A stretch of 11,653 nt of DNA from Candidatus Hadarchaeota archaeon (GTDB lineage: Archaea; Hadarchaeota; Hadarchaeia; Hadarchaeales; Hadarchaeaceae): positions 1 to 11,653 of the forward strand of contig JBFMBF010000032.1 of NCBI GenBank assembly GCA_040755315.1. Reading direction: 5' to 3'. Under the pieces are notes generated by a model that was not told where the DNA came from, ran no database searches, and saw only the letters and a program-made list of their open reading frames with translations. The position numbers were made by a program, and so were the translations under genes. Below, piece by piece: positions 2,804 to 11,600 of the stretch (position 1 is its first letter; every line of letters starts with the position of its first letter).

Positions 2804-4993
2804 TCATACGTTAGGATTTATTTCATTATAGTTTCCGGCTTGCCGCTTGACGCTCCGCGCGATTTCGGCGCCAATGTAGGGCACCTTCGCCAGATCCTCC
2901 TCTGCGGCCCGCTCGATGTCCGCCAGCTTCCTGTAACCTGCCCTGAAGAGGCTCCGTCCGCGCACCCGCCCTATTCCGCGCAGCTGCACCAGCTCCAGAA
3001 GTTCCGCCTTTACCCCGTACCTGACGCGCTTCTGGAGGTCCCTGAGGGGGGCCAGCGCGGGCCCGGCCTTGAAAAGCCTGGCCAGCTCGTGAGAGGCGTG
3101 CAGCAGCCACCCAGCCGTGTCGGCCGTCCTTCTGATGTCCCCGGCGCCAATCCCGAACTCCTCATGGATGTCGTCCTCCCTCATCTCTTCAATCCACATC
3201 TGCACTATCCTCGCCGTCTTGAGTTCGGCCATGAAGTGCTCGAACTCCTCCGGCTTCCGGTGCGGGTCTGGGATCGGGACGAGCAGCTCGTCCGCGTACC
3301 TCAGGTAAAACTCCTCCATCTCCTCCAACTCCCGCTCCCTGAGATAGTATGTGGTCATGTCTGGGGTCCTGGAAATCAGGTGGAGGAAGGCGAGGTCCGT
3401 CGGCCTTTCCGCCGTCACTCCCTTGAGGCCGTCCCTGATTACCACGGCCGAAAGCGGGTCGATGTAGAGTGTCGAAACCAGCTCCCCGAACTGGGTGGCC
3501 AGGAGAAGCTTCCCCTTGCGTGAAATCATGCCCTCTTTTTCAAGGAAGTCCAGAATCCGCTCCACCACACGCCTAACGTCCCTGGTCCCAAACTGGTGTG
3601 CAAAAAAAGTCCGCCCCATGAAGCCCAGCAGGCTGTCTTCGTCACTCACATAGCCAGCCGCTATCGAGGCGAGCACGTGGGTCCTTAGCGCGGGCTCGGT
3701 GCCCAGCTTTGAGGTTATCCTCTCGGATTCCGCGTGGATGAACTCCTCGAACAGGGCCTCCACCTCCCGCTTGCCGTGCGCGATGGCCACCGCCTCCCCA
3801 TACTCGTCGTACTGCGGGCGGCCAGCCCTGCCGCACATCTGGTGGAACTCGAGCACGGGGATATACTGCATCCCGTACGGCTCCACGTATCTCCTGTAGT
3901 CCCTGATAATGGCACGCCGCGACGGCAGGTTCACACCAGCCGCCAGCGTGGGGGTGGCGCAAATCACCTTGAGAAAAGTCTTCCTGAACGAGTCCTCAAC
4001 AGCTTTCCTCTGGCTCGGGTGGAGTCCAGCGTGATGAAAGGCCGAGCCGCGCCTCACGCAATCGGCCAGCAACCGGCATGTCCTGCTGGGCTCTCCAAGG
4101 GCCTTCTCCACCTCCTTCGCGGCTTCCGCCAGCTTTTCTTTCTCCTCAGCGGTCAGGTGGTTTTTTGTGTGTGATGCCAGAAGTTCGGCGGAAGTCTGCG
4201 CCGAGCGCCGGGTGTTCACAAAGACCAGCGCCTGCCCGCCCTCCTTCACTGTGTCCAGCGCCAGCGCCGCCAGTGCTTCCCCCCCTCCCGCGACCTCTCT
4301 CCTGCCGCCGTCGTCGAACTTTATCTTCCCGTTCCAGTAGACTCCCTTTTTCAGCGGAACCGGCCTCCACTCGCTCTTGACCAGCTCAGCCCCGAGCCAC
4401 TCCGCCATCTCGTCGGCGTTTTTTATCGTGGCCGAGAGCGCGAGTATCTGAACCTTCGGGTTGACCTGCCTCAGCCTGGCCGTCAGTATCTCGAGGGTGG
4501 GGCCCCTACCTGGGTCGTCAATCAGGTGGACTTCATCCAAGACCACCACGGAGACGATGTCGGCAAGCCACTTCGCGCGGTGCCTGAGCAGCGAGTCCAC
4601 CTTCTCGGAGGTGGCCACCAGGATGTCATAGTGTGCAAGGCGGGGATCGGCCACGTCGAAGTCGCCAGTGGCTATCCCGACCTTTACTCCTAGATGTCCG
4701 TACTTCTGCCTGAACTCGTCGTACTTCTCGCTCGCGAGGGCCCTGAGCGGCACGATGTAGATGCATTTTCCCTTTTCCCTGAGGACGGACTTCAGCATGC
4801 AGAATTCGGCGATGAGCGTCTTCCCACTGGCAGTCGGCACTGCCAGAACCATGTTTTTCCCTTCAAGAACCTGCTTCTTCACGGCCTCGGCCTGCGGCGG
4901 GTAAAGCTTTGTTACGTTTGATTTCTCCAAGGCTTCGGCCACTTCACCGGGCAATCCGTACTTTTTGCACACTTCTGAGATTTCCAAACCCAC
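2804..4993 (-). CDS. hel308: ATP-dependent DNA helicase Hel308 (Hjm; Ski2-like SF2)
   Basis: Q motif LYPPQ, Walker A AVPTASGKT, DEVH, SAT, FHHAGL, TPTLAAGVNLP, QMCGRAGRP, RVRYGVK and C-terminal HhH motifs (LRGIGRVRGR, VPYIG). The start may be TTG at 4987. Confidence 0.95.
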   Translation of the reverse strand: MGLEISEVCKKYGLPGEVAEALEKSNVTKLYPPQAEAVKKQVLEGKNMVLAVPTASGKTLIAEFCMLKSVLREKGKCIYIVPLRALASEKYDEFRQKYGHLGVKVGIATGDFDVADPRLAHYDILVATSEKVDSLLRHRAKWLADIVSVVVLDEVHLIDDPGRGPTLEILTARLRQVNPKVQILALSATIKNADEMAEWLGAELVKSEWRPVPLKKGVYWNGKIKFDDGGRREVAGGGEALAALALDTVKEGGQALVFVNTRRSAQTSAELLASHTKNHLTAEEKEKLAEAAKEVEKALGEPSRTCRLLADCVRRGSAFHHAGLHPSQRKAVEDSFRKTFLKVICATPTLAAGVNLPSRRAIIRDYRRYVEPYGMQYIPVLEFHQMCGRAGRPQYDEYGEAVAIAHGKREVEALFEEFIHAESERITSKLGTEPALRTHVLASIAAGYVSDEDSLLGFMGRTFFAHQFGTRDVRRVVERILDFLEKEGMISRKGKLLLATQFGELVSTLYIDPLSAVVIRDGLKGVTAERPTDLAFLHLISRTPDMTTYYLRERELEEMEEFYLRYADELLVPIPDPHRKPEEFEHFMAELKTARIVQMWIEEMREDDIHEEFGIGAGDIRRTADTAGWLLHASHELARLFKAGPALAPLRDLQKRVRYGVKAELLELVQLRGIGRVRGRSLFRAGYRKLADIERAAEEDLAKVPYIGAEIARSVKRQAGNYNEINPNV

Positions 4994-5016
4994 CGCCTCG
5001 TTCAGACCTCATCGTG

Positions 5017-5031
5017 TTATTAAATTAAATA
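5017..5031. promoter_or_regulatory. Shared AT-rich TATA core of the divergent hel308/elp3 promoter
   Basis: TTATTAAATTAAATA lies in a 58-bp intergenic gap, roughly 20-40 nt from both start codons. Confidence 0.6.
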
Positions 5032-5051
5032 CAGTGTTTATCTGGTGGAAC

Positions 5052-6656
5052 ATGCAGGGGGACGCGGTTCAGTCGGCAGTCAAGCTAGTTTGGGACGGGA
5101 TAGTAACAGGAAAAATTACAGACGCCCGCAGCCTCTCAAAAGCCAAGATTCAGGCGTGCCGCGAGTTTGGGCTTTCGGGGCCGCTGAAGAACTCGGAACT
5201 TCTGTCGGCTGCCGATGCCGACAAAAGGGAGAAGCTCCTGAAGCTTTTGACCCTCAAGCCCGTGCGATCAATCTCAGGCGTCACAGTTATAACCGTGATG
5301 CCCAAGCCTTACGTCTGTCCCAAGGACGAGCCTTGCATCTACTGTCCAGGCGGGCCGGACTCCAACATACCCCAGTCTTACACGGGAAAAGAGCCCGCGT
5401 CGGCCCGGGCCGTGCAGTGCAATTATGACCCCATCTGCCAAATCAAAAGCAGGATCGAGCAGCTCCGGGCGGTCGGCCATGATGTTGACAAGGTCGAGTT
5501 GATAATGTTCGGCGGCACTCTGACAGCTTACCCGGCCGATTACTTGGAACAGTTCACAATCAAGTGTTTGAACGAGATCTCTGGGTCAAAAGCCGAAGCG
5601 ATTGAGGAAGCGCAGCTCGCCGCCGAAAACTCGCAGATCAGAATAAGCGACATCACAATGGAGACGCGCCCTGACTACTGCAAGGCGCCGCAGGTTGACT
5701 TCATGCTCAAGCTGGGTGCGACAAGGGTGGAGTTGGGGGTGCAGACAGTCTACGACGAAATTTACAGGCTGGTCAACCGCGGCCACACCGTGGAGGATGT
5801 CGTCGAGGCCACGAGGATAACCAGGGATGCCGGCTTCGCGGTGGTTTATCACATGATGCCTAACCTGCCTGGCTCGGATTACAAGCGCGATCTCGACACA
5901 TTTGACACAATTTTCAGCGATGAGAGATTCAAACCGGACGCCGTCAAAATTTATCCAACTCTCGTGATGCCCGGCACAAAGCTACACGAGATGTGGCAGC
6001 GCGGAGACTACAAGCCCTATCCGCTTGATAAAATTGTCGAGCTAGTTTCAGAAATAAAAAAACGCGTGCCGAAGTGGGTGAGGATACAGCGCATCCAGCG
6101 AGACATCCCCACAAACCTGATCGCCGACGGGGTCAAGATGGGGAACCTGCGTGTTCTGGTCCAGGAAAAGCTCAAGAAGGATGGCGCTCGCTGCAGATGC
6201 ATACGCTGCCGCGAGGTCGGGCATGTGAAGTACAAGCTCGGCCTTGAACCCAATCTTGATGACGTGAAGTTGATGGTTGAGAAGTATAATGCTTCTGAGG
6301 GTGAGGAACTTTTCGTATCGTTTGAGGATGTGGAGAAGGACATTTTGGTCGGGCTTTTGAGGCTGAGGCAGCCGTCCGAGAAGGCACACAGGCCGGAGGT
6401 AAAAGCCGCTAGGGCAATGCTGGTGAGGGAGCTGCATGTTTTCGGGCCACTCGTGCAGGTGGGGGAGGAGGCAGGTGCGGGCGACTGGCAGCACAGAGGC
6501 TGGGGCGAGCGCCTGATGCAGGAGGCAGAGAGGATTTCCAGAGAAGACTTCGGCGCGCGCAGGGTCATGGTGTTGGCAGGCATAGGAACACGGAATTACT
6601 ATAAAAGGTTCGGTTACGAGCGCGAGGGACCTTTCATGGTGAAGGAGCTGAGCTGA
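5052..6656 (+). CDS. elp3: tRNA uridine(34) 5-carboxymethylation radical SAM/GNAT enzyme Elp3
   Basis: KPVRSISGV, CPKDEPCIYCPGG, PQSYTGKEPA, ETRPD, ELGVQT, HMMPNLP, KIYPTLV, RIQRDIP, CRCIRCRE, VRELHVFG, QHRGWG, GIGTRNYY. ATG 5052 with SD GGTGG is preferred over the ORF-track start at 4965, which overlaps hel308. Confidence 0.96.
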   Translation: MQGDAVQSAVKLVWDGIVTGKITDARSLSKAKIQACREFGLSGPLKNSELLSAADADKREKLLKLLTLKPVRSISGVTVITVMPKPYVCPKDEPCIYCPGGPDSNIPQSYTGKEPASARAVQCNYDPICQIKSRIEQLRAVGHDVDKVELIMFGGTLTAYPADYLEQFTIKCLNEISGSKAEAIEEAQLAAENSQIRISDITMETRPDYCKAPQVDFMLKLGATRVELGVQTVYDEIYRLVNRGHTVEDVVEATRITRDAGFAVVYHMMPNLPGSDYKRDLDTFDTIFSDERFKPDAVKIYPTLVMPGTKLHEMWQRGDYKPYPLDKIVELVSEIKKRVPKWVRIQRIQRDIPTNLIADGVKMGNLRVLVQEKLKKDGARCRCIRCREVGHVKYKLGLEPNLDDVKLMVEKYNASEGEELFVSFEDVEKDILVGLLRLRQPSEKAHRPEVKAARAMLVRELHVFGPLVQVGEEAGAGDWQHRGWGERLMQEAERISREDFGARRVMVLAGIGTRNYYKRFGYEREGPFMVKELS

Positions 6657-10598: not shown

Positions 10599-10716
10599 TG
10601 GTGGGGTCGCCGAGATTTGAACTCGGGTCACCGGCTTTTTTGCGTTGGCCTACGTCCCATTCGGCAGATCAAGAGATCTTAAGCCGGCAGGATAGGCCAT
10701 GCTACCCCACGACCCC
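10599..10716 (-). tRNA. tRNA-Pro(TGG) with two BHB introns: 21 nt at 33/34 (10660..10680) and 19 nt at 37/38 (10637..10655); CCA encoded
   Basis: Acceptor GGGGTCG/CGACCCC-A-CCA, Pro-type D arm GGGTAGCATGGCCTATCCT, T arm CCGAG-TTCAAAT-CTCGG. Removing both inserts gives the anticodon arm CCGGC-TT TGG GA-GCCGG. Confidence 0.93.
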
Positions 10717-11492
10717 GTGTTATATGTTTCGATGGCTTCTTTAAGGCAATTGCTTTTTTCTGTTATCACGTCGCGTATTCCAAACAATATCGCGTTTTTT
10801 TCAAATCCACAGTAACTACGGGATTTGTACGCTTTGACGCTGTCAATGAACCCACCAAAATTCGCAAATTTTAACATGTTTGGTCTTCGGTCAGTATTTA
10901 TCCCATGAATGCCTGACCAAGTATTTTTGTCTTTAGTCAAGTTCATCAATATTCCTAGCTCTTTTGCCAACAGCTTCCACTCATTTGCTAGAGTTGGGTG
11001 GGCACAGCCCAGTCTTAATCTAAATTTTTGGCCGTCGTTGATAATTGAAACATTTCCATCGGCACTCATTGCAAGCCTAAAAGCCAACACTTTTACTTTC
11101 AACGATTCTTTGAAAATGAACTGTAAAGTTGGGTTGGTAGTAACTGTAAATTTGTCATCATTGTTTCGTTGCGGGCCTGTTTTAAAAGAGGGGGTCAGCG
11201 AAAAAGAGTGTTCATACATTCGGATTTCAATCCGCGTTCAAATACTGTTCGGTAAGATCTATTGTGAATTTGTAAATAACCAGACGGTTTTCCTAAGTCC
11301 ATTCATAATCAAAAATCTGAAAATCTGATGTAAAGCGACGTCTTTTCCGTAGTATACCAACCAATGTGCTTTTCTGTTTCTTCTTTTCATGACGCATCCG
11401 TCTGTCAAAAGCATTACGGCAGCCAATTTACAACATTCACTAAGCGTCAATTCTTTCATCTGTTCGTAAATCTCCAATTTCCTCGCCCCCAT
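10650..11492 (-). pseudogene. Two-motif LAGLIDADG-like homing-endonuclease-fold gene, interrupted by two compensating frameshifts (real decay or assembly errors)
   Basis: ORFs 11259..11492 and 10650..11219 share a frame and carry the LAGLIDADG-like helices LAAVMLLTDGCV and LAFRLAMSADGNVSI. The two stops between them (TAG 11259-61, TGA 11238-40) are bridged by an open alternative frame at 11195..11302. Two sampled 60-mers are 35-37% GC. Confidence 0.7.
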
Positions 11493-11600
11493 TAATTTTC
11501 ACATTGCAAGATAAACAATTTGTGGGGAGAGGTCGGCGAAAGTAATATTTAAACGTTTTAACAAGCCTGACAATATTATATTGTTTTCAAAGGCGATATC

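Follow-up and report, generated by a model that had tools for sequence, protein, structure and literature searches.

A two-intron tRNA-Pro(UGG) gene of Hadarchaeota whose second intron probably guides the folding of the first

Nested tRNA introns that enforce an order of splicing are already described in the available part of PMC3728597, and tRNAscan-SE 2.0 handles them according to the accessible text of PMC8450103. Excerpts of PMC4090602 list non-canonical intron positions and call the mechanism of intron transposition unknown, and those of PMC3695527 describe independent D-loop introns that are spliced in the opposite order. In the nested pre-tRNAs of Thermoproteales (Sugahara 2007/2008; Tocchini-Valentini 2009, as represented in the same portions of PMC3728597, PMC4090602 and PMC8450103), the last BHB likewise forms only after the others have been removed, but the hosts use an (αβ)2 EndA with the crenarchaeal loop, whereas the genome studied here has one EndA gene without that loop. 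Closer in lineage are the Hadesarchaea, which the available text of Kaneta 2018 (PMC5829648) reports to combine an α4 EndA with many disrupted tRNAs; our genome resembles them in its one-subunit EndA and its many disrupted tRNA genes. The same text assigns the Hadesarchaea enzyme an L3 loop, whereas the present EndA shows no such insertion, though the definitions may differ.

Among 301 genomes of another phylum, we found 16 with a tRNA-Pro(GGG) gene in which a 5-nt exon is flanked by introns at 32/33 and 37/38, which are 32 and 16 nt long in one genus. These lengths match the two-intron tRNA-Pro(GGG) of Methanothermobacter thermautotrophicus, which we take to be interrupted at the same two positions. 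As in the gene described below, the anticodon of this family lies on a micro-exon and the second BHB forms only after the first intron has been spliced; in all 16 genes the micro-exon and the start of intron 2 give eight contiguous pairs with the D-arm. In contrast, the present gene has its first intron at 33/34, a 4-nt exon, UGG or CGG anticodons and a single contiguous outer pair, and its D-loop match, which covaries, lies apart in the intron-2 loop. The intron sequences of the two families are unrelated, and the D-arm helix of the Pro(GGG) genes is the same principle in another register.

The stretch of DNA analysed here, from an uncultured Hadarchaeota archaeon (the window, 11,653 nucleotides of contig JBFMBF010000032.1) contains a tRNA-Pro(UGG) gene with two introns, 118 nt long with the CCA encoded, at 10716-10599 on the minus strand. 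It is laid out as follows, in the direction of transcription.

10739..10744, minus strand: putative TATA-like box (by eye), about 23-28 nt upstream of the tRNA and within the LAGLIDADG frame described below
10681..10716, minus strand: exon 1 (positions 1-33), identical in sequence to the first exon of the Pro(CGG) gene in this genome
10693..10699, minus strand: D-loop positions 17a-21, target of the antisense stretch of intron 2 (precursor minimum free energy fold; pair counts in 29 homologues)
10686-10683 with 10665-10662, minus strand: intron-1 central helix, with a 5-bp hairpin beside it
10660..10680, minus strand: intron 1, 21 nt, at 33/34 (BHB motif scan, blind splicer, 29 homologues)
10656..10659, minus strand: 4-nt micro-exon U34 G35 G36 G37 (anticodon UGG plus G37), with Gs that, in the precursor, can pair with C27 and with the 3' strand of the D-stem
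10637..10655, minus strand: intron 2, 19 nt, at the canonical 37/38, its BHB present only once intron 1 is gone
10646..10652, minus strand: 7-nt D-loop antisense stretch in intron 2, the proposed internal guide (pairing, covariation at position 20, folding tests)
10599..10636, minus strand: exon 3 (positions 38-76, CCA encoded), equal to the exon of the Pro(CGG) gene

Splicing of both introns yields a standard 78-nt cloverleaf with the anticodon UGG. Its body equals the exons of the single-intron tRNA-Pro(CGG) on contig C7, base 34 being the sole difference, a match that cannot arise by chance. A blind iterative BHB splicer ranked the two-intron 33/34 and 37/38 parse first. The earlier note on this DNA, made from the sequence alone, had proposed this identity and these two introns round a 4-nt exon; the isoacceptor body, the parse and 29 homologues bear it out. 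To its question whether this is the sole tRNA-Pro(UGG), the assembly answers that only three Pro bodies are present, CGG (C7), GGG (C13) and the UGG gene itself, single-copy counts being bounded by an assembly completeness of 86.6%. A sigma-70 promoter and terminator scan, a model unsuited to archaea, gave nothing useful; the TATA-like motif recurs at the corresponding place (by eye) in the other loci that bear the upstream cassette discussed below.

The 33/34-intron pattern gave 35 matches in 66 genomes of the phylum, 29 of which are tRNA genes; the other six were left out as non-tRNA (five inspected, one a near copy of one of those). These 29 genes, 16 UGG and 13 CGG, come from 26 of the 66 genomes, 12 genera and four families, and a further seven two-intron copies were found in metagenome contigs. 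The 37/38 intron is present in 29/29, so that a 33/34 gene lacking intron 2 occurs in 0/29, and among the Pro(UGG/CGG) genes that lack intron 1, at least 21 have no intron at all, as judged from hit spacing with two confirmed. In a tree masked for the guide sites and base 34, the UGG and CGG genes split with a support of 89/92. As controls we used 32 single-intron Pro genes, leaving aside six whose intron lies in the D-arm and three whose only intron is at 32/33.

The motif scan of the precursor returned the intron-1 BHB as the earlier note had drawn it, with a 4-bp central helix on C28-C31 and a 5-bp hairpin, together with one contiguous outer pair. This central helix is complete (4/4) in all 29 homologues, and both position 28 and the hairpin show two-sided changes. 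The intron-2 BHB also agrees with the earlier note. It comprises a 4-bp central helix, a 3-bp hairpin and seven outer pairs and was detected only in RNA lacking intron 1, so the dependence on prior removal of intron 1 held in the scanned intermediates; its central helix is 4/4 in 24 homologues and 3/4 in the remaining five of 29. The ViennaRNA probability of this motif is uninformative, being near 0 here and 0.002 at the median in controls. Because positions 32-35 become contiguous only after intron 1 has been spliced, the order intron 1 before intron 2 is locked by topology. The principle is known, and that nested introns are spliced in order is in itself no surprise. The parse, the topology behind the order, the conservation and the covariation are in silico results, and gene identity and splicing order, taken jointly, are almost certain. 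Multi-intron tRNAs and ordered splicing being known, the gene alone would be a clean new example.

The earlier note further held that the endonuclease must tolerate a weak outer helix of intron 1. Indeed, the strict hBHBh' arrangement has an outer helix of at least two contiguous pairs, and intron 1 offers one (C27-G35, in 28/29 homologues), with the pairing beyond it broken by bulges. That part stands, but the D-arm pairing continues with the micro-exon and with the covarying 7-mer of intron 2. The outer helix is thus probably not weak, and an account by enzyme tolerance is incomplete.

In the minimum free energy fold of the precursor, the intron-1 motif is borne on a long irregular helix in which the D-loop bases 17a-21 pair with 10652-10646 and the D-stem 3' strand is paired with the micro-exon. 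The 7-nt pairing is complete (7/7) in 22 of the 29 two-intron genes and 6/7 in the other seven, compared with 6/7 in three, 5/7 in 14, 4/7 in 14 and 3/7 in one of the 32 controls in their best register. The median duplex energy is -10.7 kcal/mol in two-intron genes versus -4.5 kcal/mol in controls; gene by gene, the shuffle p value of the duplex exceeds 0.05 in 9/29. The 7-mer falls mostly in the loop of the intron-2 hairpin, a region in which the controls vary freely, and the bases it catches include G18/G19, those of the T-loop contacts. When the proposed structure was imposed on a MAFFT alignment, where three rows are shifted out of register here, 98.2% of cells were paired, a value reached by 0/500 shuffles, and controls slid along the alignment stayed at or below 50%.

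Position 20 and its partner are U-A in 17, U·G in two and C-G in ten of the 29 genes, with no mismatch (Fisher p=0.005 over 16 genus-by-anticodon units), and C-G in all seven metagenome copies. Each of the two clades, UGG and CGG, contains both states, and the tree implies five changes (5-7 across bootstraps), only two of which are forced by well supported branches. This is the one guide pair with two-sided change; the other variants are transitions, which would seem wobble-compatible anyway. RNAalifold, run on the 29 genes, did not return the guide helix and gave a mature-like fold instead, which means that the two folds compete closely. Contacts of G18/G19 with the T-loop favour the mature-like fold and are ignored by the folding model.

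Within that model, the 7-mer acts on the folding of intron 1. In this gene the intron-1 central helix has, at 37 °C, a probability of 0.98 in the full precursor, which falls to 0.14 when intron 2 is removed and to 0.009 when the 7-mer is scrambled; at 60 °C the corresponding values are 0.91, 0.58 and 0.15, so intron 2 is not strictly required. The full precursor exceeds the scrambled one in 27/29 homologues at both temperatures, although the helix surpasses 0.5 in the full precursor in only 15/29 (37 °C) or 18/29 (60 °C). The homologue medians at 60 °C are 0.74 for the full precursor versus 0.69 without intron 2, and at that temperature the helix can form without intron 2 in 17/29 genes. The guide helix is likelier before than after intron-1 removal in 29/29; in the present gene it persists at 0.74 after removal at 60 °C.

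We therefore regard the locus as a working tRNA-Pro(UGG) gene, present in a single copy, whose two BHB introns interlock and whose intron 2 probably serves as a built-in folding guide for intron 1; the guide role of the 7-mer, as modelled, is likely to a similar degree. In a first step, pairing of the 7-mer with D-loop 17a-21 and of the micro-exon Gs with C27 and the D-stem 3' strand would block a mature-like cloverleaf, leaving C28-C31 free for the intron-1 central helix and keeping the intron-2 hairpin from forming. EndA, a one-gene enzyme of the α4 type, would then cut intron 1 and RtcB would join the ends, the 4-nt exon being still tied to intron 2 and held in place by the long helix. In silico, the joined RNA is predicted to refold into the cloverleaf with 32-35 contiguous, allowing the canonical 37/38 BHB to form, and a second round of cutting and ligation would release the 78-nt tRNA. 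If so, one tRNA intron acting as folding guide for its neighbour would be an RNA-side answer for a loop-less one-subunit endonuclease faced with anticodon-arm introns.

Comparators confine this role. Apart from the two-intron Pro(GGG) relatives, two single-intron Pro(GGG) genes of the other phylum (L153 and L155), with C at both 32 and 33, carry a 10-pair complement between the intron start and the D-arm and have no first intron; it is possibly a relic of a lost first intron, or else a counter-example to the guide. In the Leu(CAG) family with 32/33 and 37/38 introns, a partial D-loop match in intron 2 is present in three of the only four full-length genes. Together with the Pro(GGG) genes that have a lone 32/33 intron, these results tie the 7-mer guide to the 33/34 family and do not extend it to anticodon-arm introns in general. 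Long Pro genes numbered 0/38 in the phylum of genome G057. In three Pro(GGG) genes of Hadarchaeota whose sole intron is at 32/33 (L134, L135, L141), the anticodon Gs pair directly with the D-stem 3' strand.

Splicing in this genome would rely on a single 177-aa EndA (contig C30), with one match each to PF01974 and PF02778 and neither a β subunit nor a fused repeat, hence of the α4 type; a second gene could have been missed in an assembly that is 86.6% complete. One RtcB gene is present (C10). The closest EndA relatives are Hadarchaeota records, and alignment with M. jannaschii 1A79 is colinear, showing no insertion of a broad-specificity loop (L1/L2/L3). Relative to A. pernix 3P1Z a 9-residue gap replaces the loop, and relative to ARMAN-2 4FZ2, which has a longer pre-histidine loop, there is a 5-residue gap. 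Six other introns of the genome have no outer helix at all, which indicates that this EndA accepts relaxed motifs and that a guide is no general need; the idea that a strict enzyme requires the guide is thereby ruled out.

Such tolerance lends itself to a reading that we consider rather unlikely, in which splicing is ordered and the 7-mer is now idle: EndA would take the relaxed intron-1 motif from a minor conformer, and the 7-mer would be a relic, derived as an inverted D-loop copy, or be kept for another reason. The introns without outer helix agree with this, as do the mature-like consensus fold, the partial dispensability of intron 2 at 60 °C and the D-arm complement in the single-intron genes of another phylum. 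However, it leaves aside that the stretch is kept in 29/29 genes of four families at a place where controls vary freely, and that it tracks the C/U change at position 20 several times.

Less probable again is a pairing that is real but serves something apart from folding, either by splinting the cut ends and the 4-nt exon for joining by RtcB or by preventing a one-sided nick at the 3' bulge of intron 2. The guide does overlap the intron-2 hairpin and bridge exon 1 to the 3' fragment, and the 17/29 genes that form the intron-1 helix at 60 °C without intron 2 would fit this role, but scrambling the 7-mer with intron 2 present lowers that helix in 27/29. Splint or lock and folding guide are not mutually exclusive.

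Annotation tools miss or mistype the gene, as the earlier note had foreseen: ARAGORN does not call a tRNA-Pro(UGG) in default mode and in intron mode types the gene as Phe(AAA) with a single intron of 40 nt, and the best Rfam clan match is tmRNA, below threshold. Single-intron annotation of this kind mislabels such genes as Phe(AAA) or Leu(AAG). Taken at face value, the ARAGORN calls would suggest one long intron of 40-46 nt in a tRNA-Phe(AAA) or Leu(AAG), or else a pseudogene or dead copy, which is highly improbable, given that no single-intron BHB yields a cloverleaf, the body is that of Pro(CGG), both motifs are conserved with compensatory changes in 29 homologues, and no other Pro(UGG) was found although CCA accounts for 3202 of the 14060 Pro codons counted, roughly and with antisense frames included, over long open frames. 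Least probable of all is a role of intron 2 in guiding box C/D-type modification of the D-loop (e.g. Gm18), like that of the archaeal pre-tRNA-Trp guide introns described in the available part of PMC4090602: its antisense stretch does span G18, but box C and box D motifs occur in 0/29 introns and the introns measure merely 16-22 nt.

The earlier note overlooked, besides the 7-mer, the remnant of a protein gene whose frame enters the tRNA.

10650..11492, minus strand: frameshifted double-motif LAGLIDADG gene (open reading frames; Pfam PF14528 at E=3e-4, under the cut-off; three-segment tblastn)
11535..11552, minus strand: left-end motif of the cassette, 836 nt upstream of the tRNA

Homology to LAGLIDADG proteins extends over 11477-10797, with frame changes near 11294 and near 11190-11204, and the GC content of this region is 0.39 versus 0.54. 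The last frame reads through the putative promoter and the 5' half of the tRNA to a stop in intron 2. The same read-through is seen in G007, G016 and L186-L188, and an earlier stop in L189-L191 makes it probably incidental. The frame, broken by its two changes in this genome, stays intact over 300 aa in G016 and 275 aa in G007. The model of an intact relative (pLDDT 69.7) matches I-Tsp061I, I-DmoI, I-SceI and the non-cutting WhiA, consistent with a predicted two-domain LAGLIDADG fold that, by alignment, has an acidic residue in both motifs.

Close relatives of this protein occur in 4/66 genomes and seven metagenome contigs, and 11/11 lie directly upstream of a two-intron Pro gene, although the 11 loci are not independent and may represent perhaps five or six lineages. 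The left-end motif recurs 836-853 nt upstream of the tRNA in 7/11 loci. Further upstream, at 870-970 nt, 7/11 loci carry a copy of the first 28-37 bases of the tRNA, above the shuffle maximum, and one further locus has a borderline 16-base copy of the 5' end; such a fragment was not recognisable in G001, G016 or this window. The fragment of G007 stands behind a native-type promoter and stops at the intron-1 site. The fragments of G007, L186 and L187 have U20, as against C20 with a matching guide in the full gene. In L189-L192 the UGG gene stands beside cdc6, a place occupied by CGG in the 12/12 genomes checked. L186 and L187 also contain, at 2-925 and further upstream than the stranded fragment, another ORF in which a LAGLIDADG-like motif can be made out by eye. 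In a fifth genome, L178 (G066) 850-2043 encodes a distant relative of 398 aa with an N-terminal helix-turn-helix fusion, not beside a Pro tRNA. At L176 (G016), the cassette and its two-intron tRNA-Pro lie between a TFB gene and the splicing endonuclease gene.

These arrangements suggest, tentatively, that the intron pair is co-adapted cargo of a tRNA-targeting homing cassette and has spread by homing, a possibility that we rate as less likely than not. A free-standing LAGLIDADG enzyme would cut tRNA-Pro genes lacking the 33/34 intron. During repair, both introns would be copied in along with the enzyme gene, a new promoter and a fresh 5' exon, and the former 5' piece would remain upstream as the homology arm. 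Intron 1 would render the rebuilt gene immune, and the guide in intron 2, matched to the D-loop of the cassette, would make intron 1 splicable. The consistent abutment of the 11 relatives on two-intron Pro genes would follow, as would the fragment that stops at the intron-1 site, the three U20 fragments next to C20 rebuilt genes, and the four contigs with UGG at the cdc6 locus. Against it, only 4/29 of the genes in the genome set bear the cassette, the other 25 having no such neighbour, and the loci are not independent. Were homing the route, it would be a concrete way for BHB introns to spread between tRNA genes and isoacceptors, and would bear on how archaeal tRNA introns are gained and moved, stated to be unknown in the accessible part of PMC4090602. 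A LAGLIDADG profile search in the phylum of G060 returned 0/1 genome, uninformative at n=1.

Two described systems come close to this layout. At the tRNA-Thr(GGU) locus of Caldiarchaeum subterraneum, for which the available text of Sugahara 2012 (PMC3293823) proposes integration and reports an ORF classed as recombinase by a classifier, a stranded tRNA 5' fragment, a one-ORF insert and a full tRNA with an extra intron near the junction are arranged in a row, as in most of the 11 loci above. In contrast, the ORF here has a predicted LAGLIDADG fold, which points to homing, and this window lacks a recognisable fragment. Phage collaborative homing, as far as the accessible part of PMC3984707 describes it, also places a free-standing endonuclease beside an ORF-less intron at its would-be cut site, but there the introns are of group I and reside in phage genes, whereas here they are protein-spliced tRNA introns of an archaeal chromosome, with a putative target site and putative cleavage. 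Neither an intron acting as D-loop guide for a neighbouring intron nor a LAGLIDADG cassette at an archaeal tRNA was found described in the partial texts covered by our literature search, the primary papers that might draw such pairing lying outside it (Marck and Grosjean 2003; Sugahara 2007/2008; Tocchini-Valentini 2009).

Disrupted tRNA genes are frequent elsewhere in the genome: among 35 parsed tRNA candidates, seven have two or three introns, three gave no parse and one is doubtful. A tRNA-Leu(CAG) (G000 C27:10703-10840) has 32/33 and 37/38 introns round a 5-nt exon. For tRNA-Trp(CCA) (G000 C23:19357-19512) the parse gave three introns, one of which is nested; the insert in its anticodon loop shows box C/D-like motifs by eye. 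A 172-nt tRNA-like gene (G000 C6:13587-13758, minus strand) probably has at least three introns, though its parse is doubtful. Relaxed motifs for the loop-less EndA are seen in Gln(CUG) with D-arm and 32/33 introns (G000 C13:3409-3520), in Ser(GCU) with an anticodon-stem intron (G000 C19:12355-12463) and in Thr(UGU) with two introns (G000 C12:15948-16053).

The window itself holds two further tRNA genes on the minus strand, a tRNA-Arg(UCG) with a 17-nt canonical intron (1494-1400) and an intronless tRNA-Arg(CCG) (210-134), about 1.2 kb apart with an NTPase (PF01931) gene between them. Three co-oriented genes at 10158-8086 (minus strand) encode an arrestin/Spo0M-like protein with a zinc ribbon, a 177-aa helical protein and an SPFH protein with a double zinc ribbon. 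A Hel308-like helicase gene (4993-2804, minus strand) is divergent to an Elp3 gene (4965-6656, plus strand), whose product combines radical SAM and acetyltransferase parts. Elp3 is a wobble-uridine modifier, and its gene shares the contig with this U34 tRNA.
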